Under the pieces are notes generated by a model that had not been told where the DNA came from, ran no database searches, and saw nothing but the letters and a program-made list of their open reading frames with translations. A program made the translations under genes and the position numbers. DNA of 64,000 nt, taken from the NCBI GenBank assembly GCA_030704615.1, contig CM060733.1, positions 42,222,001 through 42,286,000 of the forward strand, in the 5' to 3' direction. Positions 16,805 through 40,260 of the stretch are shown here, piece after piece (position 1 is the first letter of the stretch; each line of letters begins with the position of its first letter). Source of the stretch: Takakia lepidozioides (lineage: Eukaryota > Plantae > Bryophyta).

Positions 16805-16817
16805 GGACACGCTTTTT

Positions 16818-16831
16818 GAGAGGGGAAGGGG
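16818..16831 (+). promoter_or_regulatory. Polypurine tract of Gypsy B
   Basis: GAGAGGGGAAGGGG, 3 nt upstream of the 3' LTR. Confidence 0.9.
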
Positions 16832-16834
16832 TAA

Positions 16835-17801
16835 TGTTAGAGGACTGTCTGGGACTTAGACACTTATACGGGATCTGTGGGGTACCCTTAATTTTTGCAC
16901 AGACTGAGACCAACAGGAGCCTTAGGGGTGACAGCAGCGCACTTTAGGGGGGTGACACACACAGCCAACACACACAGCCAACACAGTCCACAGGTCACAG
17001 CCAACACAACCGACACAGCCTCGTCACAGCCAACACAGCCGACACAGCCGACACAGCCGACACAGCCCATCACAGCCAACACAGCCCGTCACAGCCAGTC
17101 ACAGCTTGACACAGCTGTCACGACCATAGGGAACGGATAGCCGGACAGGGAACGACTGGGGGAACAACACCTGCGAATGGAACATGTTAGTTCACGGACG
17201 ACGGTTAGTGAGGGAAACGGTTTAGAACAACGGGTAGGAAGATAAAGCTAGAAGCAAGGACTGAAAGGGGGATCATTCTTTTGGGGATCACTGCTGGAAG
17301 GAGTGGGAAGGAGCACTTCTTGGGAGACTTCGGACATCACTGGGGGAAAGGAGGAGAGAGCGTATCTCTGAGCAGAAAGGGAGAGCACGGAGAGTAGGAG
17401 GAGGATCTGTTGATGCTTAATGAATGCAGGCAGTAGAATTGTAATGTAGAGCAGATTAGAGACTCCATGGCTTCAGCCTGATACTTGATAGATATTAATC
17501 TGATACACACCTCATACTCACACTGTGTAGAGAGATCTGAGTGAAGCTGTGGAATGAATTGATGAGTTGATGGAATCTGATAAATTGATGAAGCAAACTG
17601 ATACTTAATTACCAGCAGTAAGGTAACTAGCTAACATGAATGCGGGAAGGAAAACAAATAGGAAACACCCCCATGATACACTAGCTGTAGGTCATGACTG
17701 ATTGTTCTGAGCGGGCTGAGTACTTAGAGATTTCCAACTCTTCTATCTTGGAGTTTCCGCCTCGGATAGCGAAGGGATGGGTGAGTAAAAGCCGCACGAC
17801 A
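16835..17801 (+). repeat. 3' LTR of Gypsy B
   Basis: Direct repeat of 6121-7094, followed by TSD TTAAC. Confidence 0.95.
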
Positions 17802-17806
17802 TTAAC

Positions 17807-18950: not shown

Positions 18951-19139
18951 CCCTGGTAGAAGGGGGATGCAGCGATGGGAAGGAATGCGGTGCCGATTTG
19001 TCCGAGCGACGTAGCCTGATCCAAATCCAAGGAGCCAACTATCTCAAAAATCCACAGTCAGAGTGTTAATGAACCTTGTCTCCGGAATGCGGCCCCTGGT
19101 CTTTGCGCAATAACTGCCAACGGTATGCAGTTAGAAAGG

Positions 19140-20760
19140 GGGGGCCGTCCGGATGATGACGGCTGAAGGGGAGAAGCCGGCACCGTGCCGTCACATTACT
19201 ACCCCCGAATGGAAATTCGGCACCCAATATCCAACAGGGGCCCACGGATGAAGTCGTCTGGGCAGAGATCGGCACCTGTCCGACAGAGAACATCCCCCGG
19301 ACGGAAATTCAGCGCCGAATTTCCATTCGGATCCCCCCAAAGGAAGTCCTGTCGGGGGGTCAGGCCGAAAACTGGCGGACATAAAAACCTACGCGGATGG
19401 AAAAACGGCCGAATTTCCATCCGAGGCCTTTCGGATGCAGTCGGCTCGGGGGAAAGGCCGCCATCTGGCCCTCACATTACAACCCCCGGACGGAAATTCG
19501 GCACCGAATATACAACAAAAGGAAGCCCGGATGAAGTCGCCTCGGGCGCAGAGGCCGGCGCGTGTGTGACAGAGAATATCCCCTGGATGGAGATTCGGCG
19601 CCGAATTTCCATCCGGGCCCCCCAAAGGAAGTCGTGTCGGGGGGTCAGGCCGAAAACTGGCCGGCATAAAAACATCCCCAGATGGAAAAACGGCGCCGAA
19701 TTTGCATCCGGGGCGGTTCGGATGCAGTCGGGGAGGGGGACGTGGCCGTCACATTTCAACCCCCGGACGGAAATTCGGCACCGAATATCCAACAGGGGAC
19801 GCCCGGATGAAGTCGCCTCGGGCGCAGAGGCCGGCGGCGCGTGTGCGACAGAGAACATCCCTTGGATGGAGATTCGGCGCCGAATTTCCATCCGGGCCCC
19901 CCCAAAGGAAGTCGTGTCGGGGGGTCAGACCGAAAACTGGTCGACATAAAAACCTCCCAGATGGAAAAATGGCCGCCGAAGTTCAATCCGGGGCCATTCC
20001 TATGCAGTCGGGAGGGGGGGAGGGGGGAGAGGCCGGCACCTGGCGTCATATTTCAACCCCGGACGGAAATTCGGCACCGAATATCCAACAGAGCGGCGGA
20101 GAGGCCGGCACCTCTCCGACAGAGACCATCCCCCGGATGGAAATTTGGCGCCGAATTTCCGTCCGAGGCTGTTCCGATTTGCCGGAAGCAGTGAAGGATT
20201 CCAAGAAAAATCCGAAAAATCAATCGGACACGCTCAGAATTACCTGCAGGAAGGTAATTCAGCGTTTCAAAATTCCTGGCGAATGGAAATTCGGCGCCGA
20301 ATATCCATACGCCAGCGATCCGACTTACCTGCTGGATGGAAATTCGGCGCCAGATCTCCATCCATCCGCTCTCCGCCCAACCTTGCGGATGGAAATCCGG
20401 CGCCGGATTTCCATCCATCGCCTCCGAATTACCTGCTTGAGGGAAATTTCGCACGCCGCCCTACCTGCGCGGATGGAAATGAGGCGGATTTCATCCATCC
20501 GTCGAATTACCTGCGTCAGGGAAATTTGGCGCGCCGCCCTACCTGCGCGGATGGAAATCCGGCGCCGGATTTGCATCCATCCGCTTCCGAATTACCTGCG
20601 TGAGGGAATTTCGTGCGCCGCCCTACCTTGCAGGATGGAAATTCAGCGCTGAATTTCCATCCTGCTGCGCTCCGAATTACCTGCAGGATGGAAATCCGGC
20701 GCCGGATTTCCATCTTGCAGCGCTCTGAATTACCTCTTCGTTGGAAATTCCGGGCGAGTT
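19140..20760. repeat. Central GC-rich array between the two divergent MULE genes: ~280-bp and ~60-bp units built around the palindrome GGAAATTCGGCGCCGAATTTCC
   Basis: Many copies or variants of the palindrome (e.g. 19592-19611, 20141-20160, 20390-20413, 20690-20712), plus GAATTACCTGC repeats. Confidence 0.9.
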
Positions 20761-22229
20761 CCGTCGATTTTTCATCCGACATGGAGGGCTTCATCCGACA
20801 TTTAATTGCGCAGTTGGGCAATAAATGTCCACCGCCGTCGGTTTTCATTCGGGCTGGCGACACATGGCTTTTGGATACGTACCCTAAATCTCATGCTAAT
20901 CTGGCTTAACATGCTATTCGAGGCATGTACCCAAAAACGGAGATCTTTTTCCATTTTGGCTGGGACTTATGCCGCAGGGCGTGGCTCTCCTGAGAGAGAC
21001 CTCACATCCAGACCGCGGCGGAAGTTGAAAGCTCTGTACTACGGACGACGGCCAATCTCTCGCATGGCCAAACTGAAGCTCCAGCAGGAGATTCCAGTGT
21101 CTTGCTCACAACCCGCGCCAACTAAAGCCGAGTACTCTCAGGCAAGCCACTTCTGCTTTCGCTTTGTTCGATTTCTTTTGCTTTCGCTTTGTTGCCTCGC
21201 TTTGTTTTGCATCTTCATCCTGGCTTCGCTGGATGAGTGAAACTTTAGATAGTTGAGTGAACCTTACATTGTTTACAATGCGTGTGCAAATCCGGCAGCT
21301 GTGGAGAAGGCTGCTTGTGCATGTATTCTCAGGCAATGGTTGCATTTGTTTTCATTGTTGTTGCATGGCTCTCCATACTTCCTAAACTTGTTATGTTTTC
21401 ATTTTTGTTACACAATTGTGCTATGGTGGTTGCGCTGCTCGTTGCGATGCTGGTTTTTGCACCGATGTTGGTTTTCACGATTTTTGGGAATGACAGAGTG
21501 ACGACGAGCCCGGCACGCTGGTGGTATCATCGACAGCTCCAACTCATCGCATGTTTGAATCGCCCAACTTGGGGGCGAGAGGGCAAACTTCAACCTTTTG
21601 TTGGTGGACGGAAGGACTTGCAACGAGAGTACGACAGAATAGGCATTGGGGAGGTGGTGCAGGCGGCATGGCAGGTGAAAAGGGCGTGAGGACATGAGGA
21701 CAGCAGATCCGGCAATGGAGGTTGTTCATGCACATGCAGTAGGGCCCGCCCACGCAAAGAAAAAGAAGAAAGCTAAGCACATGCAATCCCGGCGGAGAGA
21801 GAGCCGTCACGGGCTGCGGAGGGGGGAGAGTGAGCAGTGCGTGCGAGGGAGGGTCAGTTCGCCTCAATCAAAGGTGGTCGTCCTGGAGGGCTCCCTGCTG
21901 CTAGCCCTAGTAAAAACAGAAAGCCCGTGAGAGGGAAAAAAAAGAGAAGGCAAAAGAAACAAACGAAGACAGAATGCTAGCCAGGAGGAAAGAGAAAGGC
22001 CACTGAAGAGGCCAGGGGTGCCCAAATGACAGATGCCAATGTAAGCGAGGGACGCACAGAGACGGTGGATCCCTCCAAGACACCACAAAGAGGCAGTAAC
22101 ACACCGGTTAGACCATCGCGGGCAAGAGCAGCCCCCGCAATTACCCATACGGTGGAGAGTGGAGGAGGAGGAAAGAACACCAGAAAGAGCACGGATTGTG
22201 CAAGTTCGAGGTGAAGCCAGGGAGAGGGC

Positions 22230-22553
22230 TGTCAAGTTATTTTACCACTAGTGTGAAACTAGCTAGGAAATAGCTAGCTTTACATATTGATATTTGGGAT
22301 TGGCCCAAGTGTCAATCCAGGGGTCAAGGCAGATTTAGGCCCTGGAGTGGTTATCTTCACGGCAAGCGCGGGAGGCTCATCTTTCTCGAGTTGAGCTCAC
22401 CGCGCCTAGCTATGGCGCCGTAGTGTGGATTCCCCATGGCGTGGGGTGCACTTGGCTTGACTTGTATTTGAGTGATGAGGTTATATATGCATGAGTTTAT
22501 GTTTCAGCTTTGTGAGCTCGCATGAGCTTGTGCTTGTATTCTTTTCTTTATCA
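22230..22553 (+). repeat. Repeat A1 of element C
   Basis: Near-identical to 32747-33073. Confidence 0.95.
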
Positions 22554-22565
22554 CTCGAGAAAGAT
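22554..22565 (+). promoter_or_regulatory. Putative self-priming PBS of element C
   Basis: CTCGAGAAAGAT directly after A1 is the exact reverse complement of ATCTTTCTCGAG inside A (22379-22390). There is no TGG tRNA-type PBS. Confidence 0.7.
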
Positions 22566-24019
22566 CAGCTCGTATCTATGAGTGCTAGATACGAGTTAGT
22601 TGTAGCACTTGTGGTTTTTGCTTGAGAATGAGAGAAACCAGGTTGTTATGCAAGGAGCACCGTGGAGCTCTTGGTTGTTAGAAGCGGAGGCGATGTGGGT
22701 TACGAGGTGGTAGACCTTGGCATTCGATCTTCAGCTTCAGAGATGAAAGCACCATGCTGCAGGTAATTCCAGAGCACCTTGATGGTTCAGATGTGTACAT
22801 GCATGAGCAAGCACGATTGGGAAGAGGACCAGTCAAGAGCAGGTTATAGTGGCTTTGGTGGCAAAGCTGAGAACTGGACTTGGGAATGCGAGCTTTCATT
22901 GTGTGAAGGATTGCAAGACCAAGCGAAAGGGCTGATTTGGCTTGGGGCAAATCAATGCACTTTGTGGAGTGTGGTGAGATTGGGTTTCAATCTCGAGCTT
23001 CAGCATTGAGAGGGCTCTTGTCATGGCAAGAGCAGGGCTGGAACAGGAGCTAAGAGGTGCGGCAAGGCCATGGAATGTGCACCTAGGGTTTCAGAGCTTG
23101 GAAGAAGAGCTCTTGCACCACAAAGAAAGTGTCTTGTGGCTGGAAATGTAAGCCTTAGGGTTTCAGGAGCTTGGCAAAGGCCGTGGAGTGCTTAGTCTTG
23201 TCTTAGAGAGCATCAAGGAGCCAAGGAGCCAAGATAGGGGGCTGATATCTCTTGTGTGAAGAGGTTGCATGTGTGGAGCATGTATTCAGCTCATTGAAGC
23301 TTCCATCTTCAAGCTTGGAGGGCAAGCAGGAAGAGGGAAGGGCTGACTTCCCTTATGTGAGGGCAATGCATGTGTGGAGAGCATGCTATCAGCTGATGAA
23401 GGCTTGCACTTTCAGGTTTGTGGGTGCAAGAAATGAAGCAAAGGAGCTGATTCTCTTATGGTGAGAGTGGGGCATGTGTGGAGCATGCCTTCAGCCCATT
23501 GAGGCTCTTGTTTTCAAGCTTTAGAGAGCTAGAACGGAAGGTCTAGGGCTGGTTTCCACTTGGAGTGAAAGAAAAGCACTTGTAGGGCCTATGTGAGTTG
23601 GGGTTTCAACTTCAAGCTTGAAGGGAGCGCAACTCTTGAAGCAACAGGTGTAGGGGCTGGAATAGGCTCTAAGACAGATGCTATGGCCAATGAGAGTGCT
23701 TGAATGAGTGCTCACAAAGGGCTGGGAACCAGCAGGGCTTGGTTGTTTGCCATTGAGTTTAGTGGCGTGTTTGGGGAGGCTAAGTGAGAAAGAAGGCTTG
23801 GTTTGTGGCAACCACCTCATGGCTTAGGGCTACTATGGTGGTGTGTGGAGCCGAAAGAGCAAGGATACCTTGCTGATTTCCTCACAGTCACCATAGCTCG
23901 GTGGAAAGAAGCCTAGAGTCCAAGAGACACAAACCTAGCTTGGCGTGGCTAAACCCCTTGGAGAAATGGCTAAACTGCCAGAGCGGTCCATTAACGGCTG
24001 TTGAATGGCCTGTTGAGAC

Positions 24020-24420
24020 GCCGGCTGTAGTGGCTGTTGTGACCCCGGCTGTGTGTGGGGCTGTGGGCTGTGTGAGAATGGGCTGTGGGCCCTGTGTGCC
24101 CATGTGAGGCGGGCTGTGACCCTGCCTTTGAGGCGGGCTGTTGGGCCTGAAGGCGGCCCCATGGCCTTTGGGGCTGTGAAGGGCTGTGACAGTGGGCTGT
24201 GACTGTGGGCTGTATGTTGTGAGGGGCTGTGAGTGGGCCCGGCCCGTGTGAGGGGTGACGGCTGTGGGTGCCTGAGGCCTTTGAGGTGAGTGAGGGGCTG
24301 TGAAAGTGGGGACTGTGCCCAGTGGCCTGTGGGCTGTGACGGCTGTGACCAGTGGTGTGGGCCTGTGCTGGTCTGTGGTGGCCCGTGTTGACCTGTGGAC
24401 GGCCTGTGCTGACTCGTGGA
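24020..24420. repeat. Degenerate GGCTGTG(A) repeat tract in the long 5' leader of element C
   Basis: More than 10 copies of ggctgtg or close variants. Confidence 0.75.
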
Positions 24421-25078
24421 GGCACTGGTGGACTGCCTAAGGACTGGCATGTGGTCTGGAAGGCCGAATTTTGAAGCTCGTGGAGGGCGGTTTGAGGAGT
24501 ATCTTCATGATATTCCCATGGTCATGCAAGTGAGGGAAGAGAGGAGAGGAAGAGAGTTGGGATGAGGGCATGCTGGGGTTAGGCATTGCTTTAGCTTCTC
24601 TTCCTCGTAGTTTCCACCCTCTCATTAGGCCAAGACCTTTCCGTAGGTGGAGGCAAGAGTCAGTCCGGGTTGGGCTGGGGTGTCCTTGCAGGAGCAACAC
24701 CGTGGAGTTGTTTTTGGTGTGGGGGAGTTGTGTCTGATTTCTTGTGTTTGGATCCCCTCCATACCTGCATGCTTGACTGTGCGCCATGCTAGTTTTGTGT
24801 GGGCGCTTGTTTTTATAGGTGATTGGTCCGGATTTGATCACCGGCCAGTCCTAGAGCATGCTGTCGATGGTGAGGCTGGGGTGATGACCAGCCAGACCAT
24901 CATTGTTTCTCCTGTGGTGAGGTTGGAGTGATGACCAGCCAACCATAGGAGTGCTTGCGGTGGATGCAGGTACAGGTGTAGGCTATGTTAGGAACTTAGT
25001 ATTCCAAACCATAAGCCGCAACAGGTTCTCTACCCGGTTACCTTGTGGAGAGGGGGTTAGGGACATGTTCATGACCGG

Positions 25079-26990
25079 TTGAGTGTCAACACGGAGGTGC
25101 CACTAGTTGCTGGGGACAGTGCCGGTTCGAGCACTAGCGATACTAGTGGGTACACGAGACGAGGTGTGCGGTTTAGGCCACCTTCACCTCCTGTGTCTTC
25201 TACGGAAGGTTCTGATTCGGATTGTGAATCAGGAGGACTCATACCGGCGGTGCAAGTTGTTTCTTTGCCATTGTTGTGGGACACAATGGAGGAGATGTAT
25301 GGAGCTACCAAGGGGCCACGAAGGTACTCTGGGGCGGTGGGCACCATCGAGTTGGATGATTTTATCCAAGAGTTTGATAGTTGGTGTGATTTGCAGCAAA
25401 TGCGCAATCCACAACTATTTACGCCTTTCATGGCATGGAAGGGGCTGTTTCAGCACCTTGAGGGGCCGCCTATGGATGATTACCATGAGTTCAGGCGGGG
25501 CATGAGGTTGAGATCGAGGAGTGGAGGATGTACTGGTCACCCGACTATGTCTCCATCACTAGGGGCACTAGAGCCACGAGGGCAGTGGCTACACCTGCCG
25601 CTGCACCGGCAGCTTCAGCAAGTAGCAGTGGGACTGGTGGTACAGTAGCTACGACGTCCACCCAAGCCACTACCGCACCAGCACTAGCACCCGTGCCTGC
25701 CTTCAACCCTGTTGTGGAGTTCTTCGAAGAGTTGAGAGGGAACTACCAAGGGGTGAGGACAGAGAAGTTGCGGAGCTTGCAAGAGTTCCAACGGAAGCCG
25801 ACCGAGAGCTTGAGGGAGGCTTTCACTCGCATGAGGCGCTTGATAAATGTAACCCAAGGGGTTACGGAAGCTCAGGCAGTCCAATTCTGGTATGGGATAT
25901 TGGACAAGGAGCTGAGGAGAAGGTGCGGGATGCAACTCTCCTACAAGCGGCCCAACCCACCTTAGCAAATGTGTTTTTGCTGGCAGAGCGGATAGAGCTC
26001 AACATGGTGGAGGAACGAGTGGTCATGGTGGGATTTGCTAAGGAGACACCACGGGGTAGTGGTGCTCCTAGCCAACCACTACCTCAACGTGCTCAAGGCA
26101 ACAAGGGGGCTCAGGTGAAGCTCAGGGAAGGGCAGAGAGGACCTCAGATGCAGGGGTCTCTCCCTTCATTTGCTGGCCAACAACGGGGCGGATGTGGTGT
26201 GCTGGACATGTGGAGGACCCCATGTCAAGAAGGATTGCCCAGAGGGAGGCAAAGGGGGGGCACATGCACAGCCTGCACAGTTGCAGTGTGGGCATTGTGG
26301 CAAGCACGGGCATGGAGAGGCCCAGTGTTATGGTTTGCATCCTGAGTTGCGCCCAGGCCAGTTCCAAGGGAACAATGGTGGCCGGGGGCGAGGTGGAGCA
26401 GCCCAGAGAGGACGAGGTGGCCAGCCACGAGGCCAAGGGCAAGCTCAACGTGGCCAAGGACGCGGAGGTCAGGGTGTTGACCAAGGCATGGCCAACCGGC
26501 TTCAGCAGCTAGAGCAGAGGCTCGCTGCCATGGCTACAGCTCAGGTGGTACCGGCTCTAAGGCCGGATGGTCCACCTCCTGCTCCTGAGGGAGGAGATAT
26601 GGGAGGCATGGGATTCATGTGTGGAGCAGCACTACCACTAGTGCAGGTGGAGTCTGCTGCAGCCGTGACTCGAGGAGCAGCACGAGTTCCTGAGCCACGA
26701 GGTGCAGAGGTGGAGTTGGATCCACAGCGTGGGGAGGCAAGCCGTCAGGCTAGGCTTCCTCAGTCATTCACATTGGCGGAGACAGTGTCGACGCCATCCA
26801 TGGCACCTAGTTCTCGCCCGACTGTTACCGAGGCGGAGGTTACTATGCCATTGGGGAGAGCTACACGGGTAGCACCACTACCTAGTGTTGCCAAGGCTAC
26901 GGCAGCTAGTGTGCTGCTAGGAGCGGCCACATCTGTGCCAGGCTCCATTGTTCTCGGCTACCATGATTGCGACGCCGGGGGTAAGACCAG
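25079..26990 (+). pseudogene. gag of element C (frameshifted)
   Basis: Capsid-like region LDDFIQEFDSWC...FQRKPTESLREAFTRM; zinc knuckles CWTCGGPHVKKDC and CGHCGKHGHGEAQC; RGG-rich tail. Confidence 0.85.
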
Positions 26991-27199
26991 CTGAGGTGTT
27001 CAGGCTGGCAGCTACACTCTGTGAGAGTGGGGAGGTTACTTCATCTTCTGCGGAGATAGTGGGAGGTGTAGTGCCGGAGGGATCCTCGGATTTGAGGGTC
27101 AAGACTGCCACGGCGGCGCCATGGCAAGCTGCAGCTGCCAGGTTGATGGAGCTGCCAGCTAGGCCAGCCATTGAGCGCGCCATGGTGACACCTGGAGTT

Positions 27200-27640
27200 G
27201 TCATGTTAGACAACCAGGATGGCATTTTCTGTTTGAGTGGACCGGCAGGCAAGAGGTACCGGCCACTGCGGGTCTTGTTGGACTCGGGAGCTCAGCCATT
27301 GATGCTGGGCAGAGCTGCTATTGCAGGCTTGGGCCTCACGGAGGCGGATATGGAGCCTTGTCCTTTCCAGATACAGACGTCTCTGGGAGGATCGGAGCAG
27401 GCTCGGGCATGACACGGCGTGAGTTGGCTATCAGACTACGGCCGGATCACCCTACAGATGGCTCAGTGATGCGAGCCAAGGCCATTGTGACAGACGCAGT
27501 CTCATACGATGTCCTGGTTGGTGGGGCAGTGTTGTACCCCATGGGCTTCACCCTGGATTTTTGGGAGGAGTCAGCTTCCTATAGGCCTGCATGGCAGTCA
27601 GGGGAGGGCCGGCGTGTGCAGCTCCCTGTGACGTTCATAG
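27200..27640 (+). pseudogene. Aspartic protease of element C
   Basis: RVLLDSGAQP and YDVLVGG motifs. Confidence 0.85.
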
Positions 27641-27979
27641 GAGGAGTTGCGGTTGCCCAGCGAGGCAAGATGCCGACACTAGCAGCATTCACAGCGGCAG
27701 TGAGTTGGCCTAGAGAGTTGCTTGAGGGCAATGCTCATTCAGAGGATGTACACCTCCGGGAGAGCAGGATGACATGTATGGTATGGCGGAGTTGCCTACC
27801 ATGGTTGCTCAGACTCCATTGTGGGGCACGAGCAAGGATTTGCAGCGGGATGCTGATCGACGGGTGCAACAAGCCTGGGTGGAGGCTTTTGTACCGTCAG
27901 GAGAGGAGGAGAGTGTGGGGATTGCACCAGGACCACCTCAATTGTCTCCATTGGACACCACACCTATTGTGTGGCAGTA

Positions 27980-28900
27980 TCCGGATGAAGGCATTTGTCT
28001 TCTGGACTTGTTTGGCGGGATCAGCACCGGATTGGCTGCTGTGTTACAGGCAGGTGTACGAGTTCGGCGTTACCTGTATGTGGAGAGGGATGAGACTGCA
28101 CGACGCGTTTCACTTCGCCATGTTGCTCAGTTGGTGCAGCGGTACCCTGAGTTGTTGTCGGTGTCTGCAATTCGTGGATATCAGCAGGCCTTGCCAGCAG
28201 ACATTTCGTTGCTGGGGGCGCAGGATTTGGAGCGGGTTGGCTCCATTGATCTGGTAGTGGCAGGTTGGCCCTGCCAAGGGCATTCATCAGCCGGGCATGG
28301 CAATGGATTGCGAGACTCGAGGTCGGGTCTGTTTTGGGAGATGGTGCGGGTTTTGCGCCACTTGCAGCTTCATCAAGCTGTATCTCCAGCATACATCTTG
28401 GAGAATGTGCCACTGATGGGCGATTCTCGGGCCAGGGTGATGGCCAGTGTGCATCAAGTCCGGTCGTGGCTTGGGTCAGCAGTGTTGCTAGATGCAGCTA
28501 CAGTGGGGTCACGGGCTCATCGTCCACGGCTATGGTGGACTAACTTGATGCCACCCGCACTGCTCAAGCGTGCATTTGATGGGGTGCAGCGGCCAGCATC
28601 TCACAGTGGATAACATTCTGGACACAGGGAGGCAGTCTCACGTGTGAGACACAGAGCGGTCAACCCAGCATTACCTACACTGCTCAGCTTCCCAGGATCG
28701 CATGCTTTCCGGGATAGTGGACCTGGCCTCTGTGGGATGCTCAGTTGCAGCAGTTAGTGGAGCCTAATGCTGACGAGCGTGAGCGGGCAATGGGTTTTAC
28801 CACTGGTACCACGGCGTCTTTCTGAGGCATCACGTCGTCAAGTGTTGGGGCAAGCAATGGATCTCAATTGCTTGACCTGGATTATCAGCTTGGCTCTGGC
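27980..28900 (+). pseudogene. C5-cytosine DNA methyltransferase domain (DNMT3/DRM-like) within pol of element C
   Basis: Motif I LLDLFGGI; motif II YVERD; motif IV AGWPCQ (28263-28277); motif VI ILENV (28401-28409); motif VIII AHRPRLWWTNL; motif IX EPNADERERAMGF; motif X RRQVLGQAMD. Frameshifts after 28600. Confidence 0.92.
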
Positions 28901-29349
28901 TGAGCAACGCAGAGTGCGGAATACACTTCCCTCAATGGTCTCTCTGCCTACCGAGACGGTACAGGCAGTGAGTGGGGGCGAGCATATGAGGACCACGGGG
29001 TGCATGCATCCATGGCACACGTGGGAGGTGCTCGAGGTTCAGAGGGAGTTGGCAGCCAAGGCGGCTGTGATGGATGAGGTTGGGGATTCTTCTCGGGTTG
29101 AGGAGGTCCTCAAGGATGAGATGATGGGGCAGGATGAGGCCTTGTCATTGACTGAGCAGGTAGGGAGTACTGCTCAAGAGGTTGCAGCATAGCAACCACG
29201 GGACGCGTCCTCTACCTCTAAGCCCACTGGACTTAAGGTTGTAGTTACGGAGGACAATTGGGAGCCTGACATTGGACCCATTGTCACCGGAGGAGAGAGA
29301 CGACGTATACGGCGGTTCCTGAGGGCTTACAGGAATTGCTTTGCCTTCA

Positions 29350-32307
29350 GTTTGAAGGACTTGGGAGCACTGAAGGGTCAAGAGATCCGTATTGAGTTGG
29401 CCACTGACACGCCAATCTTTCGGAGACCCTATAGATACAGTGACATGGAGAGGTCTTTGATTCAGATGAGGACTCAAGATCTCTGGGAGGCAGGTTTGGT
29501 GGAGCTCTGGAGAGTATGCTTCAGCCACAGTGATGCCAGCCAAGAAGGATGTCTATGGCAATTGGACGGAGACGTATGTGCGGTGATTACCGGCCTGTAA
29601 ATCGTCAGACCAAGTCCGATAAGTATGCCATGCCAACACCAGAGGAGATCTTTGATGCCATCGGGCATGCTAAGGCCTTTAGCACTTTGGATTTACGATC
29701 CGGATATCACCAGTTGCCAATCAAGGAGGCGGACAAGCAGAAGACGGCATTCTGGGGGATCAATGAGCACGGCAAGGATTGCCTATATCAGTGGCGGTTC
29801 TTACCATTTGGGCTTAAGAATGCTCCTGCAGAGTTTCAGAGAGTCATGGATAGGATTCTAGCAGGGGTGGACTTTGCTCGGTGCTACATAGATGACATCA
29901 TCATCTTTAGTGTTACGATGGAGGAGCATGAGAGACACCTTCAGGTGGTATTGGAGCGCTTGAGAGCGCACGGATTGAAGTTGCATCCGGGGAAGTGCAA
30001 GTTTTTCCACAACCAGATTGAGTATCTGGGTCACATGATATATCCTGGAGGATTGGGGGTACAGCAGACTAAGGTAGAGGCCATTGCACAAATTCCACGC
30101 CCCACGGATGTGAGCCGAGTTCGAGCTTTCATGGGGTTGGCAAACTATTATAGACGGTTTGTCAAGGGATTTAGTACCATTGCAAAGGCTCTAACCAAGC
30201 TGACCAAGGTGGACCAGGAGTGGCAGTGGGAAGATGAGCAGGAACGAGCTTTTCAAGAGCTCAAGGCGAGGTTGACCTCGGCGCCTATCTTGAGACGACC
30301 TATCAGGGGGCGTCCCTTTCAGCTGCATACGGATTGGAGCATGCTGGGGCTTGGAGCGGTGCTCACACAGGTGGATGATGAGGGAAGAGAGTTCGTAGTG
30401 GCTTACGCTAGCCGCTCGAACAACGCTGCAGAGGCTAAGTACAGCTCATATGAGGGAGAGTGCTTAGCTGCAGTGTGGGCCGTGGCACACTTCAGGTGCT
30501 ATCTATACGGCAATCTTTTCACCCTTGTCACGGATCACCAGCCACTCAAGTGGTTGATGGAGTCAGACAAGCTTACGGGGAAGCTTGCACGGTGGGCACT
30601 TATACTCCAGGAGTATGACTTTCAGGTTGTGCATCGACCGGGTTTGGTCAATCGGGATGCGGATGGATTGAGTCGCAATCCATGCATGAGCCAGCAGGAT
30701 GACACTGGAGCTCGGTGGCATGGTGAGACGGACGAGGAGATGGTGCCGGGATGGCACGCATCTGCATTTTTGTGTATCTTGGCATCGGGAGGTCAGATTG
30801 GACCTACAACAGGGATGACTGTAGACGGAGTGTCTGAGGACCCTGAGGCTAGTGATGAGCTAGGTGGTGCCAGAGATATACATGAGGATTCGGCTGTGTT
30901 GGACTACCTCCGCACGGGAGACACGGCAGCCATTGTGACTGCCAGGGATCCTGCAACGAGCCAAGAGGTTCAAGTGGGAGGGGATACACCTACTTCGAGT
31001 GTGGGAGGATGGTCGGGTGAGGATTGTGCCTCACCCCACACAGCGTGCACGGTTAGTGCGGCATGCCCATGAGGAGTTGGGGCATTTTGGAGTGCGACGC
31101 ACTCACAGTTTACTGCAGGGGCAGTATTGGTGGCGTGGTATGCATACAGAGGTGCAACAGTTGTGGCTAGGTGCATGGTGTGTGACAGGGTGCGTGCTTC
31201 ATTCAACGCCCCTACACCACAGTTGCATCCTTTACCAATCATGGGATTGGGCTACAGGTGGAGTCTTGACTTCGCAGGACCGTTGCCACTGACTATGCGC
31301 CACCACAGATATGTGTTGGTGATGGTGGAGCACTTCTCCAAGTGGATTGAGTTGGTTCCATTGCCTGACAAGGCTAGTGAGGGGGCTGCGTATGCATTCT
31401 TGGATCGTGTGCTTAGCCGATTTGGTGCCAGCTGAGGTACTCACGGACCAAGGGAGAGAGTTCTTGGGGGAGTTTCAGGCTTTGTGTGATAAAGCCTTGA
31501 TAGACCACCGCACCACTTCTCGGGATCATCCTGAGGCCGATGGCTTAGCAGAGAGAGTTGTTCAGACGGTGAAGAGGGGTTTGCGCAAGTATGGCTTGCA
31601 GAAGGGACACCTAGGAGATTGGGATCTTCAGGTTCCTTGGTTAGCCATGGGCTACAGGTTCAGCAAACAAGCATCACTTGCCTCCTTCTCACCATATTTC
31701 CTTCTCTTTGGCCGAGAGCCGGATTTGCCTGCAGCCATTCGTAGGGACACTGCTCAAGTCCTTAACCTTGACGATCCGGACGTGTGGGTACGTGCATGTG
31801 ATCAGCGTGCAGAGTTGTTCAAGAAAAGTCATGCCCATGGCTTTTGAGAACCTTGCCATTGCACAGCACCGTGATACGTTGAGGTATGCCACTATACGTG
31901 GTGGAGGATATCGTCCTGGGGTTCGGAGGTTTAGCCCTGGTGACTATGTTTATTTGCAGCAGACTGCTCCTACGACTCTGGATGTTACTGCAGGGCGTGT
32001 TATTCTGAGGGTTCGAGAGGTGTTGCCCTCAGGGGTCCTGATCTTGGAGGGTCGGGATGGCATGACTTGGAAGGACCATGTGCGTAATTGTGCGCCATGT
32101 CACCTTCCCAATGTCGATGGCAGAGTTGACCCAAACTTGGCAGTGGTACCTGCAGGTTTGAGGTGCATGCTCTGTGGGTCTGCCAAAGGGGCAGCCACCA
32201 TGCTGGTGTGTGATCGATGCTCAAGGGGTTGGCATATGGGATGCTTGACACCACCTCTTGAGAAGGTTCCTGACGGAGATTGGTTGTGTCCACACTGCTT
32301 GGGATAG
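29350..32307 (+). pseudogene. RT, RNase H, DDE integrase and C-terminal PHD finger of element C
   Basis: RT: LDLRSGYHQ, PFGLKNAP, YIDDII. RNase H: HTDWS, YEGECLA, TDHQPL. Integrase: HEELGHFG...CMVC, WSLDFAG, TDQGREF, DGLAER. PHD at 32164-32298. Confidence 0.93.
32164..32298 (+). other. PHD finger (C4HC3) at the integrase C-terminus
   Basis: CMLC-x11-CDRC-x4-H-x2-C-LTPPLEKVPDGDWLCPHC, a canonical PHD spacing with the P..G.W.C..C signature. Confidence 0.92.
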
Positions 32308-32557
32308 TGGCAGTGGACATGACTGGAGGCAGCTAACAAGACATGGGAGGCCAAGCTCATAGGAGTCAATACATGAGATCCCAAGCTCAAGTTCACAGGT
32401 TGCAAGACGGCGACTAACGATGGGGGCAACTCTTGCACCCGGCCTCTTGATCTATCGAGTTTGAGTGTAGTAGGGATAGTGGTGGAGGACTTAGTGAGGC
32501 TATGGTCACTATCACATCTTGTGGCTACCTGGACTTAGAGGGACCTAAGCACCAGCT

Positions 32558-32568
32558 AGGGGGGCGAT
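32558..32568 (+). promoter_or_regulatory. Short G-rich PPT of element C
   Basis: AGGGGGGCGAT immediately before TGTGTGG, the start of B1. Confidence 0.65.
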
Positions 32569-33250
32569 TGTGTGGACTAGTGACTGCCATAGTGGGCAGC
32601 GTAGTGGCAGCCTAGTGACTGACTAGTTGTAGCCTAGTGGTTGGACTAGTGGTAGACTAGTGGTATACTAGTGTGTGGTGTGCACATGTGTTGTGTGGTT
32701 TTGGACAGCGATGTAGTTGTGTAGCGATATGTATGCGCACGACAGCTGTCAAGTTATTTTACCACTAGTGTGAAACTAGCTAGGAAATAGCTAGCTTTTA
32801 CATATTGACATTTGGGATTGGCCCAAGTGTCAATCCAGGGGTCAAGGCAGATTTAGGCCCTGGAGTGGTTATCTTCACGGCAAGCGCGGGAGGCTCATCT
32901 TTCTCGAGTTGAGCCTCACCGCGCCTAGCTATGGCGCCGTAGTGTGGATTCCCCATGGCGTGGGGTGCACTTGGCTTGACTTGTATTTGAGTGATGAGGT
33001 TATATATGCATGAGTTTATGCTTCAGCTTTGTGAGCTCGCATGAGCTTGTGCTTGTATTCTTCTTCTTTATCATTGTGTGGACTAGTGACTGCCATAGTG
33101 GCAGCCTAGTGACTGACTAGTTGTAGCCTAGTGGTTGGACTAGTGGCTGGACTAGTGGTAGACTAGTGGTATACTAGTGTGTGGTGTGCACATGTGTTGT
33201 GTGGTTTTGGACAGCGATGTAGTTGTGTAGCGATATGTATGCGCACGACA
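32569..33250 (+). repeat. 3' terminal repeats of element C: B1 (32569-32744), GC, A2 (32747-33073), T, B2 (33075-33250)
   Basis: B1 and B2 are near-identical 176-bp ACTAGT-rich repeats. A2 matches A1. Confidence 0.95.
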
Positions 33251-35254
33251 GGGCAGTAGAGACGGGGAGAGTGCTGGAGGTGGTTTCGCAGGTGGCTGAC
33301 CCTGTTGAGGAGGACGACAGGGAGCTTTCTGACCAGGATGACATCCTCCTGGACATCCCCAGGCCCCAAACCCGGAGCATACAGGCTGGATTTGGCGGTC
33401 CTGGTGGGCTGCCGGAAAACCCCTCTGCAGCAGACGTCATGTCTGAGGCGGATATGAAGTTGGCCGCTACCAAGATGTTGGAGGCAACCCACAACAACAT
33501 TGGCAGGGTGCTGGGGGGCATGGTGTACCCGGCCAAGCTTTGAATTCCCCTTTGCCGCTTGGTGTCATTGCAGGTGGTGAGACCTGCCCTCCCAGGCGAT
33601 ATCGACAAGCTGAAATTCTCTTTCCGGGATGGATATCGAATGGGGTCTGCCGTGTTTTACGTTTCCATTGAGAACGACCACGGAGCTTCCCGTGCCCACA
33701 CTTCCGATGAGGTGGACAAATGGGGTCCCCATTGGCAAACGCGAAATGAGGAGTTCGAGAGATCGATTGCTAGTGATCCTCTTTTCCAGCACTTGTCCGA
33801 TAAGATGTTCTACGTGTGGGACGGCAATCATCGCCTCCTGGCATGGATGGAGCACATTGCCCAAGCCCACCCCAACGACCTCGATTGGCATTTCGCCGTG
33901 GATTGTGTTGTGCTGAAGGTTGCAGGGCCCAAAGATCGCAGTCTTCTCAAAGCTGCAATGGCCGACATCAACTCGTAAGCTACAACCCCTCTCGCTTTTG
34001 GACTTTGAATTTGGAAGTCATTTCATTGCGAATCCTCATATATGATGAAAATTCCCATTTCAGTATTGTTTGATGGAAATGTGGCACTGCAGGGTGACTG
34101 AGAATGCCTTCATTGCCACCAACTTGTCCCATATGCTCTTCCGAGTGAAGGATGTTGGGAAGCAGGGGGTGCAAGAGTTTGCCAATTCCCTCAGTGCCGA
34201 CCTCTTGCGCAAGTTGGAGGCAAAGGCAGACAGAACCTGGTATAGGCTGAGCGTCGACGCCATGGTGGACTACATATTTCGGGTAAAGCTCCTGACAGTT
34301 TTGTTGAGCTAATCTGTCTCTCCTCCCCCAATAGAAGAAATTGTGTTGAGCAGGATCTCTAATCTTATGTGCGCATTCTTGACAGACGAAAATACAGCAG
34401 GATTTGGCACATGCGCGGAGGTTCTACATGGAGTCAGAGGAGAAGAATCCAACCCTCCCGGAACTCGAATCGTATGTCAAAGCTGCGGAGGTGAGGGCCC
34501 GCATAAAGTACAAGTCGCGGATGGTAAAGTACGTGGCCATAGCTGATCCCGCCCTTGATGCCGACTCTCTGGTGGAGGTGGGGAAGCACTACTCTCGCGC
34601 TCTGAAGCCCACGATGACATTGGAGAAGCTCCATCATCTAGCCACATCCTGTGTGGATGCAACAGAAAAGGTGATACATTCTTAACCAAATTGTGGTGGC
34701 AACAACTCCTTTTTGTGGTGTTTGCGCTTACGAATATGCTGGGTGGTTGGACAGACCCGGTGGCTCCAAATCTGGAATGGTTCCCAAAGTACCAGGGACA
34801 TGTGGAGCTTCCCCAAACCGGACAAACTCTCTGACCCCACATTCGACATGTGGATGAAAACCATGACATGGTGGTTTCAGGTACTTCCCCACGCTTCGTT
34901 TGGGGCTTCTACTCTAGTAGGGGGTGGATTCATTGTATTTTTTCAGGAAACCGATCTGATGGAGAATCTCCACAGGTGACGACGAATGCGCAAGAGCAGC
35001 TGGACACACAAGCACATCAGTTCAAGATGGAGATATCTCCTGCAGCAGAGAGCCTACGTGACTATGTGACGAGGTACTTTCTGCTCTACAAAACCAACCT
35101 ATTCTTTCGGGAGATAGCAGATGCTCGCCGGAGCCACGAGTTCACCGACCAGCCGAACGCGGACAAAGCAGCAATGCGCCTTCTACAGGTACATACGCGC
35201 TGCCTTTCTTTCAAGTCCTTGCATTTCAGGATGTTAGAGGCCTCATGTGGTGTT

Positions 35255-35900
35255 AGGGAAAATGGCGCCGAATTTCCAGTCAGGGCTCCGAAAATGGCTA
35301 AGTCCCTAGACTGGCTGGCCCGGAACTGGAAATTCGGTGCCAATTTCCAGTTCCAGGCCCTATTGCCGTTCAGGGACTTGGCCATTTTCGGGCTAAGTCC
35401 CTAGACTGGCTGGCCCGGAACTGGAAATTCGGCGCCATTTTCCAGTTCCAGGCCCTATTGCCGTTCAGGGACTTGGCCATTTTTCCCTAGACTGGCTGGC
35501 CCCTGGAAATTCGGCGCCATTTCCAGTTCAGGCCCTATTGCCGTTCAGGGTTGGCCATTTTCGGGCTAAGTCCCTAGGGTGGCTGGCCCGGAACTGGAAA
35601 TTCGGCGCCATTTTTCCAGTTCCAGGCCCTATTGCCGTTCAGGGACTTGGCCATTTTCGGGCTAAGTCCCTAGGGTGGCTGGCCCGAACTGGAAATTCGG
35701 CGCCATTTTCCCAGGCCCTTTTGCGGTCTGGGACTTAGCCATCTTCGGGCCAAACCGGTGGCGCCGAATTTCCAGTTCAAGGCTCCCAAGATGGCTAAGT
35801 CCCTAGGGTGGCAGTCACCGAAAACCGAAATTCGGCGCCATTTTTCCATTTCTAGGCCCACTCACATCCGTCCCAACCTGGGAAAATGGTGCCGAATATG
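35255..35900. repeat. Intronic tandem array (~85-bp units) with GGAAATTCGGCGCC and GGCTAAGTCCC motifs inside the ParB-MTase gene
   Basis: About 6 tandem units of ctaagtccctagactggctggcccggaactggaaattcggcgccattttccagttccaggccctattgccgttcagggac, within intron 35189-35936. Confidence 0.85.
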
Positions 35901-38507
35901 CATTTCAGGGACCTCATTGTGTTTTCATGAATGCAGGTACTGCAAGTTCTCCCTTTTGGAGAAAGGTCATCTGTCTTTCGAGCCACCATTCTTCCTGGCA
36001 TGGAGGAACCCTGGGGCTGACTCCATGTACACTGACGATATTGTGAAGGAGTGGCATCTGGAACATTTGCGTGATTGCCCTTGGTATGTGGACCTTCCGC
36101 CCGGCTCGCTCGACCCATCCGAGTTTCAATTAAAGATGGATGCTGAATTCCGACGAAACCGGGCTCCGCTGCCTCCGTTGGGTGCAAAAGAGGCAAAAGC
36201 GCTTGCGAACTCCAGGAAAGCGGCAGAGCTTGCTCGGGCAGGAATTCAGGAGAAATTGCATGAGAAGAGTAAAGGCCAAAGGAAAAGGACAAGGAAACAG
36301 GTGAGTGCAGTAACACCCAAAAGAAGAAAACCATCGGGGCATCGGAGGAGGCGCAGGAGGGGACCCAAGAGAGTGACTCGGACGACGACTTTGTTCAAGG
36401 TCCTGTGACTGCTGTTGCTCCTACCCAGTCACCGGTCGTCCGGGTTCCCAAGTCAGTTCGGAGTGGGACTGGCTCTGCCAAGAAGTTGGCATTTGAGGGC
36501 GAGCCTACACGGTGGTATTCGGCGGTGACGTTTACGCACAGGCCAAAGCTAGAACCTCCAACCATCATCCAATGCGTCAATGAGAGCTTCCTTGAGGCTC
36601 TGCTGCCAGGGCGAAGAAGGTGGCACACAACAAGTCTCTGGCGGAGCAGAAGGGGAAAGCCAAGAAGAGGGCTGGCGGTACAGAGCCTAAAGACACCCCT
36701 GGTTTTGAAGCCACGATGGAATTCTTCACGGCTGTGAGCATGAATTGCAAGAGCACTCGGGGGGGGGGTTGAGGTGGAGAGAGCTTGCGACATGATTCTC
36801 CTCGACATTCTAGATGGGGAGCTGCTGGAGGGCCTGGATGGTGTGCCCACCTGGAATAGGTTTACTAAGGACTACTGGAAAGCCGGGTTTTGGCTGGCGG
36901 GGATGCTTCTGGATGACGGTGGATGTGTGGTTGTCCTTGCCACGAGAGGGAAGACCACAGAGAATGCGGTGGCAAGGTGGACACCGAAAAGTGTCACCCG
37001 GTCCTCCTCATAAAATGGTTCTGCATCAGTACACAGGGGTTGCGAACAGAGGGCCAAAGTGTAAGTTATCAATCTATTGCATTCACTTCATATTGTGGTG
37101 TATGTTAAGTAGACCCTCGAGTTGATCCCTTCTTTGTTGGATGTGCAGACATTGGTGTTTGAGGCATATTGCTTTGTGAAGAGAGGGTCTACGTTCAAAT
37201 TCTACAACGATGGTCGTCTTGTTGATGCCGCTGTGGACCCTGTAACCTACGATGTCCTCTACAACTATGTGCCCCACTCCAGTATGCCGAAGGACACAAA
37301 GACAGGCAAACCGTGGCGGTACAGCCGGACCCGGAGCCCTGCTTTCATCCAAACCCTCATGGAGACGTGCTCGGATGTCCAAGGGCGGATTCTGGAATTC
37401 ACATGCGGCACGGGTAAGCCTTCACGTGCTCAGTTTGTCCCCTGGCCCGATTGCAATTGCATGCCGCAAGCTATTAACCGCCCGCTTTGTTCCTCAGGTG
37501 CTTCAATGTGGGCAGGGACGTTGTCTGACAGGCATGTGTTTGCCTTCGAGCCAGATACTGCCCTCCACAACTCGGAACTTGCAGCGGCTGAACGTCTGCC
37601 GAAAGAGGAAGAGGCATCCTCGGAGGATGAGGAAAAATCCGAGAAGGAGCAGGGGGAGGAAGTTGGGATCGAGGCCGAGGAGCCCCCGGTTTACGAGTGA
37701 GTGGTGGCATTGTAAGTTGCCTCCAGATTTCGTGAGGCACCTCCCTCCGCTCTCTTATTTCATTGAAAACCCTTTCTGGTTGTGCTGGTATGACATTCTT
37801 GAAGTGGATTTGTTCTTACTGTAGGATGCCAAGTACTGCCGGAGGGACGTCTACACCAGAGTTCATGGGCAGGAGGAACGTGCTTTTTTTTGCCAGGGGG
37901 GATTTCATGCCTAGTCTAGAAAGGGAGTACATCCTTCCTACTTATGTTGCCCGGCTTGCTTCGGTGTCCATTAGGAGGTGTTCCAAACGTAGTCGTGTAC
38001 AGCAGATTTTAGACGAGGCAAGCCTCAAAAAATGAAGATGAGGGAGGAGGCAGCAGCTATTAGAGCCCGTCGGGCTCGTAGATTTGTCTTGGATTCTGCT
38101 GAGGAAAGTGGGGGAGAAGACGCAGAAGATTCCCAGGAGGTGAGGTGGACAGTCCCCCAAGGAGAGGACGGGATTTTTGAGAGGCATAGTGGAACTGATG
38201 CATCACAGAGCTCGGAGGATGAGGGGGATGAGGGGGATGAAGAAGAAGGTGGGGCAAGTTCCTCGGAGGGTGTAGGAGAGTAGTGCCCATTCCGGCTATG
38301 ACAGTTAGAACACACTTGTATAGACGTGGCTTGCCACAAAATTTGCAATAAAATGTTGCATTTCAAGTCCACTGGTGTCACATTCCAACTTCACATGACC
38401 CTATTTCCGTGCCTCCTAACCCTATTTCCGTGGACTCACAATGGTCTGCTCATGTTTTTTTTTTTTTCCGCTCATGCTCATGCCGCTCATCAAAAATAGC
38501 AGCCCCC

Positions 38508-39503
38508 GCAGTGTTAGCCCAAAATGTAACAGGAAGGATAGATTCACCTGTGTACTATGCTAGCCGATTGATGAACAATGCCGAAAGAAAGAAATTATAG
38601 CACAAACGGAAAGAGAAGCATTGGCAATGATCTATGCAGTGAAGAAATTCAGGCATTACTGTTGGGCAAGAAGTTTATGTTCTATGTGGATCACCAGGCT
38701 CTGATATACCTGGTAAACAAACCTCTAATAAGCGGAAGAATAGCAAGATGGTTGATAATCTTGCACGAGTTTGAGTTCGAGGTTGTTTACAAGCCTGGCA
38801 GACTGCATCTTGTGGCGGATCACTTGTCACGGTTATCAACAGGAGAACCAGCCACAGGAGTAGATGATCAATTACCAGATGCGAGTCTATTTGCAGTGGA
38901 GGTGCAGGGAAGTGCAGATGACTGGTTAGATTGGCAGTGGCCAATCAGATACTACCTTGCTCATGGTCAGTGCCCACCAAGTTATGGAAAGGAGCAGAGA
39001 AAGAGAATTGCTATCAAGGCTCTACCTTACACTATGGTAGGGAGCAGAATGTATAAGCTAGGACCAGATGGAGTGCTGAAGCGATGCTTATACCACCATG
39101 AAGTTAATAAAGTTTTGGAGGAAGTTCATAAAGGAGTGGCAGGAGGTCATTTTGGAGAAGAGACTACCAGCAGGAAAATACTACATGCAGGTTACTGGTG
39201 GCCTACTTTGTTCAAAGATGTACACAAGTATTGTCAGAGTTGTGATGAATGTCAGAGGCTAGGACCTTTGCAGAGATCTGGGAAAATGGCTTTGCATCCT
39301 ACAATGCCTACGGAACCATTTCAGAAATGGGGACTAGACCTTGTTGGACCAATTAATCCACCAGCCAAGAATACACAGAACAGGTACATAATTACAGCCA
39401 CTGATTATACTACGAAGTGGGTGGAAGCTAAAGCTTTGAGGGACAACACAGCCAAGTCCACAGCAAGGTTTCTGTATGAGAACATACTTACACGATTCGG
39501 CTG
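38508..39503 (+). mobile_element. Gypsy copy A, segment 2 (RNase H to integrase N-half)
   Basis: Continues directly from 2852 (AVLAQNVTGRIDSPVYYASR); contains GHFG, CDECQR and PFQKWGLD. Confidence 0.95.
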
Positions 39504-39905
39504 GGGGGCTGCTATTTCATGAGCGGCATGAGCATGAGCGGGAAAAAAAAAAGCATGAGCAGACCATTGTGAGTCCACGGAAATAGGGTTAGGAGGCACG
39601 GAAATAGGGTCATGTGAAGTTGGAATGTGACACCAGTGGACTTGAAATGCAACATTTTATTGCAAATTTTGTGGCAAGCCACGTCTATACAAGTGTGTTC
39701 TAACTGTCATAGCCGGAATGGGCACTACTCTCTTACACCCTCCGAGGCACTTGCCCCACCTTCTTCCTCATCCCCCTCATCCCCCTCATCCTCCGAGCTT
39801 TGTGATGCATCAGTTCCACTATGCCTCTCAAAAATCCCGTCCTCTTGGGGGGCTGTCCACCTCACCTCCTGGGAATCTTCTGCATCTTCTCCCCCATCTT
39901 CTCCC

Positions 39906-40214
39906 CCAAATTTTGTGCGCCGACCTACCTGGCGGATGGAAATCCGGCGCCGGATTTTCATCCATCCGCTCTTCGAATTACCTGCATGACTGGAAAAATG
40001 GCGCCGAATTTCCGATTTTGGTGCCAGCCATCCTAGGGACTTACCCATTTTCGGCCCCGAAAATGGCTAAGTCCCAGATCTGATAGGGTGCGGAACTGGA
40101 AAAATGGTGTCGAATTTCCAGTTGCGGTTCTAGCCATCGTAGGGACTTAGCCATTTTCGGGGCCGAAAATGGCTAAGTCCTAGATCTGACTCAGCCCCAA
40201 ACTGGAAAAATAAC

Positions 40215-40260
<46 letters not shown>

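Follow-up and report, generated by a model that had tools for sequence, protein, structure and literature searches.

A land-plant Ty3/gypsy retrotransposon carrying a DNMT3-like methyltransferase, a PHD finger and permuted terminal repeats

Why would a retrotransposon carry the kind of enzyme that silences it, and how does it reach a new site if its terminal repeats are out of order? Both questions are raised by 64,000 nucleotides of the moss Takakia lepidozioides (assembly GCA_030704615.1, contig CM060733.1, positions 42,222,001 to 42,286,000), hereafter the window, in whose coordinates all positions are given. A Ty3/gypsy retrotransposon of about 11 kb spans 22230 to 33250 on the plus strand, on which all its features described below lie, and encodes a protease (PR), a DNA methyltransferase (DNMT), a reverse transcriptase (RT), an RNase H (RH) and an integrase (IN), in this order, followed by a PHD finger. 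An initial annotation of this DNA had reported a full, unpermuted set of C5-methyltransferase motifs between protease and RT, with the catalytic cysteine retained, and this reading held for every motif quoted: LLDSGA at 27275, LDLFGGI at 28002, VERDE at 28080, GWPCQ, which contains the cysteine, at 28263, ILENV at 28395, RAHRPRLWWTNL at 28512, ERERAMGF at 28775, LGQAMD at 28845 and YIDD at 29885. The Pfam profiles DNA_methylase (E = 2.6e-13), RVT_1 (2.4e-33), RT_RNaseH (4.2e-36), Integrase_H2C2 (3e-11) and PHD (2.7e-11) scored above their curated cut-offs, while Retrotrans_gag and Asp_protease_2 fell below theirs, as did rve, which was split into two pieces.

The order PR-RT-RH-IN with a DDE integrase is that of Ty3/gypsy elements, as are the target duplication, which at 4 bp (GGGC) lies within their range of 4 to 6 bp, and the ends of TG...CA type (TGTC...GACA). 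In place of one full long terminal repeat (LTR) at each end, the element has repeats arranged as B...A-GC-B-A, and is thus gypsy-like in its working but permuted at its ends. Its methyltransferase domain lies in pol, intronless and unpermuted and with its catalytic motifs, as expected of Gypsy-DNMT3 retrotransposons, and the element is almost certainly a land-plant member of these, of the kind of KnitGypsy-Dnmt3.

The methyltransferase (27975 to 28900, motifs I to X) matched DNMT3A/3B best among solved structures when compared by sequence (E = 4.7e-10), ahead of DRM (1.8e-5) and HhaI (2.6e-4). A fold predicted for its first 212 residues, with a mean confidence (pLDDT) of 91.9, had DNMT3A as its top Foldseek match (E = 5.8e-12, TM score 0.69). 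This ranking of solved structures suggests a DNMT3-like enzyme. The catalytic motifs are retained in most relatives, GW.CQ being present in 111 of 121 proteins; its presence in 59 of 59 loci is a circular figure, as these loci had been found using the GW.CQ pattern.

A search with the DNMT piece returned 67 relative proteins, with Marchantia polymorpha, Calypogeia fissa, Sphagnum and Closterium as named sources, and a profile search added KFL_009030040 of Klebsormidium nitens, whose order is likewise PR-DNMT-RT-RH-IN. Relatives in Marchantia, Calypogeia and Sphagnum are close (60 to 76% identical), and others occur in Closterium and Klebsormidium; KFL_009030040 is homologous to the window element in every domain (50% identity over about 130 amino acids in the DNMT, 46% in RT). 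By these matches, the family is old and widespread. Since named land-plant genomes hold the family, the extension of its known range to land plants, which the initial annotation had made conditional on the host, stands whatever the host of the window. We also analyzed the best 80 of 106 confirmed metagenome loci, many of which come from one moss-like family and are therefore not independent. Among these 80, 29 have the order of the window (class A), 42 form a distant branch with the order RT-RH-DNMT-IN and 9 are unclassed, so that the DNMT occupies two places within one PHD-bearing lineage. The second architecture, RT-RH-DNMT-IN-PHD (loci L039 to L084), includes single frames of up to 3329 amino acids (L045) and has the same junction palindrome, described below.

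Could the DNMT or the split repeats be an accident of this one copy, whether from a nested insertion, from rearrangement or from faulty assembly? The many single-base gaps make local sequence errors plausible, and even B1 and B2 differ by 3 gaps as well as 2 mismatches. An accident is nevertheless refuted, and we regard it as hardly credible, because the DNMT has the same position and spacing in 29 of the 80 loci, without introns or insertion boundaries of its own, because another locus shares the repeat plan with its own target duplication, because the empty insertion site was found in two studies, and because the same repeat plan is reported for Klebsormidium (available text of PMC5890265). 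The trees agree with this: the window element groups with those of Marchantia, Calypogeia and Sphagnum in the DNMT tree (support 98/99) and with Marchantia and moss-like elements in the RT-RH tree (96), from which 12 near-duplicate or unrelated rows were excluded. The Klebsormidium element branches off at a basal fork that the RT-RH tree does not resolve, and was excluded from the DNMT tree for its short coverage. The claim that the DNMT belongs to the element is thus upheld.

Selection on the DNMT was measured as the ratio of nonsynonymous to synonymous divergence (dN/dS) by NG86, for pairs with dS of 0.05 to 1.5 only. Within the distant branch, 17 of 595 pairs qualified; dN/dS was 0 to 0.10 in the 9 close pairs and 0.18 to 0.50 in the 8 pairs near saturation. 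All pairs with the window lay above the range: against its 19 nearest loci, dN was 0.18 to 0.25, with dS of 1.8 to 2.8 in 17 and beyond measure in 2. These codon comparisons indicate that the DNMT is under purifying selection, bearing out the dN/dS below 1 for which the initial annotation had proposed to test. Weighing against constraint, the decayed moss-like copies gave 0.59 for the DNMT against 0.40 for RT, and 0.95 for the PHD finger (6 pairs). A search of viral contigs gave 5 weak matches, none with RT or integrase. One protein found among the relatives, P0055, is a DIRS-like protein of 1417 amino acids that has an RT and, beside a related C5-DNMT, a Dam-type domain (PF05869), and so two kinds of methyltransferase in one element.

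The copy in the window is itself dead or mis-assembled. It has about 16 frame changes relative to unbroken relatives, four of them within the DNMT, between about 28597 and 28825, and in this stretch the DNMT is about 40 nt shorter than in relatives. Many contigs of other runs, one of them from a separate study, differ from the window at several of the break points, and some of the breaks may be sequencing errors. Over about 325 nt, B1 and B2 are separated by 2 substitutions and 3 gaps of one base each, which makes the copy young. In one RNA run, chosen by species label, 2 reads aligned to the element. Upstream of the DNMT lie a long 5' leader (22566 to 25285), in which the scanned open reading frames (ORFs) of at least 100 amino acids had no Pfam match, a frame-broken gag with two Cys/His knuckle-like motifs (25286 to 27200; motifs at 26200 and 26287), and the aspartic protease (27200 to 27660), also broken; gag and protease were placed by Pfam and motifs.

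The frame breaks do not account for one interruption of the coding sequence. A TAG at 29190 to 29192, followed by CAA CCA (to 29198), is in frame with both the end of the DNMT and the start of RT, which with RNase H extends from 29193 to 30700. A stop followed by CAA-Y-Y is found in 25 of the 29 class-A loci that are long enough (2 more are too short), and it lies 372 to 393 nt upstream of RT in all 19 stop-bearing class-A loci that reach RT. In L006, L010 and L031 it is the sole stop in the DNMT-RT stretch, the frame being otherwise kept, and annotated proteins of the window's clade terminate 70 to 110 amino acids past motif X. The conserved stop and these protein ends together define ORF1 as Gag-PR-DNMT. 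Alignment with relatives indicates that the stop is a family feature and not decay. The initial annotation had placed DNA-methylation writer and histone reader in one polyprotein, with a continuous PR-DNMT-RT frame; this is not supported for the clade, since the stop parts Gag-PR-DNMT from RT-RH-IN-PHD.

How would the downstream proteins be made? Stop-CARYYA is a readthrough consensus of plants (available text of PMC5397192), and TAG CAA YCA occurs in three lineages, counting the window, where the first methionine after the stop comes only behind conserved sequence. RT-RH-IN-PHD is, judging from this context, likely made by readthrough. Two observations speak against readthrough as the rule: the moss-like family, the source of most rows, has CAA CCC ATG, which departs from the consensus and brings in a start codon, and the Klebsormidium and Closterium gene models, like the distant branch, are single frames. 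The stop could instead be bypassed by splicing or re-initiation, for which the ATG six bases past the stop in the moss-like family offers a start and the Marchantia gene model P0008, a prediction only, joins DNMT to RT past the stop region. We consider this bypass improbable, as the window, L006 and L031/L085 carry stop-CARYYA without an ATG there and unbroken relatives keep the frame with exactly one stop.

The integrase (30939 to 32140) has an H2C2 finger, the D, D and E residues in motifs at 31262, 31437 and 31542 and a C-terminal tail, and is frame-broken. At its end lies a C4HC3 PHD finger (32164 to 32298), as the initial annotation had proposed; a PHD finger follows the integrase in 33 of the 33 loci that are long enough. 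The single-ORF relatives P0041 (Closterium) and P0111 show no PHD finger, which counts against a fixed partnership, and the pairing of DNMT and PHD is thus not obligatory. PHD fingers that read trimethylated lysine 4 of histone H3 (H3K4me3) have a cage tryptophan two residues before the zinc-binding histidine. The C4HC3 set is complete in 53 of 55 family fingers, and in these 53 the residue at that position is glycine in 49, proline in 4 and tryptophan in none, the window finger likewise having no cage tryptophan. The nearest solved fingers are those of CHD4, KDM5A/B, ATXR5, PHF21A and BAZ2, which are readers of unmodified H3 tails. The family finger is therefore predicted, from its sequence, to bind unmodified H3 and not H3K4me3. 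Of the proposed choice of integration site by H3K4 state, there remains a predicted preference for the unmodified tail, whereas reading of H3K4me3 would fall away.

The most unusual feature of the element, its permuted ends, had been missed by the initial annotation, which had not stated the roughly 16 frame changes or the family stop either. The left end is repeat B1 (22230 to 22553, TGTC...CA), of which 321 of 323 aligned bases are identical in B2. To the right, repeat A1 (32568 to 32744) is followed by GC, B2 (32747 to 33073) and A2 (33074 to 33250, ending in GACA). GGGC flanks the whole at 22226 to 22229 and 33251 to 33254; a 5-bp reading of the duplication fits the empty site equally well. 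Contigs of runs X3 and X5, which belong to two studies, pass from one flank into the other with exactly 11025 nt skipped, so the mapped ends are the true ends of the element. Exactly at the end of A, run X3 shows 19 loose ends, whose flanks are unlike. Locus L026, whose DNMT is 67% identical, is arranged B...A-GC-B-A as well and is flanked by a 4-bp duplication of its own, AAGG.

At the A1/B2 joint (32741 to 32750) stands the palindrome GACA-GC-TGTC, which equals the right and left ends of the element abutted and is the predicted cut site of the integrase. It is the sole stretch of the repeats kept across the family. An exact copy lies downstream of the PHD finger in 13 of 35 PHD-bearing loci (0.14 expected) and upstream in none (0.41 expected), and it is present in 9 of the 12 loci that have at least 2.3 kb of downstream sequence. 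Ten of the 13 palindrome loci belong to the distant branch, where the DNMT is elsewhere in pol, some of these rows being of the same family. Copies of the palindrome core at 6382 and 17111 of the window were set aside, because they belong to a different LTR pair, within its tandem array of ACAGCC type. L048, a locus without the exact palindrome, has GCACA-TA-TGTC at 9795 to 9816, a possible junction variant. In both L013 (13162 to 13449) and L015 (5531 to 5818), right-hand B, primer site and A follow one another in a short arrangement close to an inverted fragment of B, a derivative shaped by deletion or rearrangement.

The limits of a conventional LTR can be read from the priming sites. A polypurine tract (32555 to 32567) immediately precedes A1, and relatives have one in the same place. 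Just behind B1, a predicted primer-binding site (22554 to 22565) pairs with the element's own RNA and is not of tRNA type; no tRNA gene was found within the 64-kb window. Its partner is the predicted 5' RNA end at 22379 to 22391, a 13-nt exact complement to the end of B1 and what follows it (fold z score -7.56), which would start the RNA there. The corresponding pairing is 17 nt in L026 and L009; the sequences differ and the pairing is the same, and it beats all 60 shuffles at 6 of 8 class-A ends. Against self-priming as a family-wide trait, the pairing stood out in only 2 of 9 distant loci. In sequence pairing, the element thus has a self-priming site of chromovirus type. Primer site and polypurine tract make A-GC-B the conventional LTR, with B1 and A1 as right-hand and left-hand parts, although insertions begin and end at the palindrome inside it.

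We read the inserted form, from the arrangement of its repeats, as likely a two-LTR circle opened at the inner palindrome, with the integrase cutting the palindrome there. Several observations weigh against this. The mirror form, B-A-GC-B-inside-A, which a symmetric cut should also yield, is absent at 8 different left ends and at that of the window; in short contigs, mirror and observed forms cannot be told apart. Three right ends (L018, L022 and L028) stop at A, and these may represent the mirror form, one-LTR circles or products of recombination. Finally, the B-A join in run X3 has no listed indel at or above 5%, tidier than sloppy end-joining would imply. The missing mirror form and the uniform join would both suit a route without a closed circle, by which RT switches template between the ends of linear cDNA, or copies A2 from RNA running through, and the integrase trims the left LTR at the palindrome, so that the element itself makes the B-A join. 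We think such a route unlikely, though a real contender: the polypurine tract and self-priming site delimit a conventional A-GC-B LTR, from which the standard pathway does not copy A2 out of RNA, and in L026, A1 and A2 (94% alike) are about as similar as B1 and B2 (92%), as expected if all were made at once.

Starting again from the two-LTR circle, the following cycle can be proposed. The RNA would start near 22379 and act as its own primer in the manner of Tf1, and reverse transcription of the ordinary kind would give [A-GC-B]-inside-[A-GC-B] cDNA, whose ends would then join, B to A. The DDE integrase would cleave each strand of the palindrome just behind its CA, leaving two CA-3' ends with two-base overhangs, and insert them. 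Occasional readthrough of the stop would yield RT-RH-IN-PHD, leaving the DNMT as abundant as Gag in the particle and integrase and PHD scarce; writer and reader would share one chain in the minor readthrough product alone, and the protease would probably separate them. The DNMT would methylate new cDNA in the particle, so that an insertion would land resembling old, methylated repeat DNA, and the PHD finger on unmodified H3 tails would steer it off H3K4me3 promoters and into repeats like the one hit here. We lean, with modest confidence, toward this proposal as a whole, with its Gag-packed DNMT, self-primed copying and integration from a two-LTR circle cut at the inner palindrome.

The DNMT would be inside the particle with the cDNA because it is fused to Gag-PR in this clade and lies between RNase H and IN in the other (42 of the best 80 loci). 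Both placements argue against a DNMT that acts on the insertion site, the host genome or RNA and is kept for self-restraint, because it lessens harm to the host, and not for camouflage, as does the retention of the catalytic motifs by most relatives. Such a role is among the options given by de Mendoza et al. 2018 (available text of PMC5890265). It would fit the Klebsormidium enzyme, which methylated no yeast DNA, a finding that also weighs against cDNA methylation and that its authors call inconclusive (PMC5890265, same text). It would also fit the depletion of CG in the element, which at 0.48 to 0.52 of expected is not stronger than in a neighboring gypsy without a detected DNMT match (0.37), and thus does not single out the DNMT element. 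We find self-restraint doubtful, yet to be taken seriously, and keep cDNA methylation as the preferred role.

For LTR elements, two-LTR circles have long been regarded as a dead end. Here the element's ends, its target duplication and a palindrome that is conserved across very distant relatives point to natural, obligatory integration from such circles. More tentatively, and at somewhat less than even confidence, we suggest an ancient green-lineage Ty3/gypsy clade with its attachment site at an LTR-internal palindrome and the joined two-LTR intermediate as its only route, which would make its members the first LTR elements with a DDE integrase to work so. Its land-plant branch would load active DNMT at Gag levels by a leaky stop and send out pre-methylated copies that the PHD finger steers to unmarked chromatin. 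Given where the stop lies, the enzyme is predicted to be plentiful in the particle, and Marchantia polymorpha, which has annotated, unbroken Gag-PR-DNMT genes, makes the question of why transposons carry their silencing enzyme approachable in a workable plant. Gypsy-DNMT3 genes can be miscounted as host DNMTs. LTR finders that require two full terminal repeats would miss such elements, and this may be why the land-plant members have gone unremarked.

The element lies in a multi-copy repeat (left flank 21900 to 22229, right flank 33251 to 37700). Exons of this host repeat at 33532 to 36336 match Ceratodon purpureus M758_1G295400 (49% over 147 amino acids), a protein with an N6/N4 DNA methylase domain at its end (PF01555, E = 4.9e-07); by eye, positions 37113 to 37600 look like this terminal part, and neither Pfam nor PDB gave a match for them. 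As the sole named relative of this flanking gene comes from a moss, it adds to the clade of the element in making a bryophyte host likely. The host repeat is possibly, on this similarity, a moss repeat with a bacterial-type amino-methyltransferase. Elsewhere in the window, another gypsy family, with no DNMT match, is present in pieces at 114 to 2852, 6121 to 17803, 38511 to 39503, 45472 to 47979 and 63606 to 64000, and has an LTR pair (6121 to 7096 and 16835 to 17803) that is 92% alike. Arrays of a 53-bp repeat and related palindromic repeats occupy 19091 to 20770, 39900 to 43260 and 35260 to 35870, inverted copies of 2853 to 5053 lie at 43258 to 45472, and a satellite array of 116-bp units in two alternating variants fills 47900 to 56300. 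ORF pieces at 56500 to 61300 resemble, by eye, a transposase of Mutator-like (MULE) type.

The closest known system is KnitGypsy-Dnmt3 of Klebsormidium nitens, for which the available text of de Mendoza et al. 2018 (PMC5890265) reports purifying selection and DIRS-like repeats and puts forward the hypothesis of cDNA methylation. It shares with the window element the domain order, the DIRS-like split repeats and a DNMT under purifying selection, and differs in that its DNMT is described in the same ORF as RT, whereas here a conserved stop lies between them. That text treats it as an acquisition of the K. nitens lineage and proposes no mechanism for the repeats; neither the text nor its text supplements mention Marchantia or PHD, although Fig. 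4c may depict a PHD. A 2026 preprint, in the part available, calls the kind 'streptophytes (Gypsy-DNMT3)' without bryophyte detail, and later papers, in their accessible text, cite KnitGypsy-Dnmt3 as streptophyte. Within openly readable text, that is, outside subscription papers, figures, Repbase and bioRxiv supplements, we found no paper on a bryophyte Gypsy-DNMT3, the stop or the internal palindrome. The element extends the published kind to land plants and has three features that alter the model: Gag-PR-DNMT with a probably leaky stop, a PHD finger predicted to bind unmodified H3 and an internal palindrome, the likely attachment site, that the family conserves.

The Chlamydomonas elements Gypsy-7a_cRei and REM1 (available text of PMC9940879) likewise have a PHD finger in a Gypsy Gag-Pol, with a proposed role in steering insertion and, for Gypsy-7a, an intergenic bias; they differ in a domain list given without DNMT and in near-normal LTRs. 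Tf1/Tj1 and plant Tcn1 (accessible parts of PMC4600332 and PMC6317226) share a primer site complementary to their own 5' RNA, and in Tj1 a stop likewise closes Gag. All of these are chromoviruses whose LTRs are ordinary, whereas the window element has a PHD finger where a chromodomain would follow the integrase, and its stop behind PR and DNMT. Troyka, with CG...CG ends, a 3-bp duplication and occurrence in animals only (available text of PMC12440569), is unlike the window element and was rejected.

For the permuted ends, two comparisons are nearest. DIRS, PAT and Ngaro are split-direct-repeat retrotransposons that move by means of a tyrosine recombinase. IS3-family elements form circle junctions, in which a DDE enzyme cuts a palindrome of abutted CA ends. 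The plan of DIRS, PAT and Ngaro, A1...B1-A2-B2, stores a copy of the end-to-end junction as the window element does (cited from the review file of PMC5890265); membership was rejected, given the rve and H2C2 domains, the 4-bp duplication and the lack of a recombinase Pfam match in the 33 ORF pieces scanned. The integrases of foamy virus and HIV-1 cut the palindromic two-LTR junction (available text of PMC1180852 and PMC1905944), and the proposal made here likewise has a DDE enzyme cut a palindrome of two abutted CA ends. In those viruses, however, the palindrome forms where the two true ends of the cDNA meet, while in the window element it lies inside the LTR and is apparently the sole site used.

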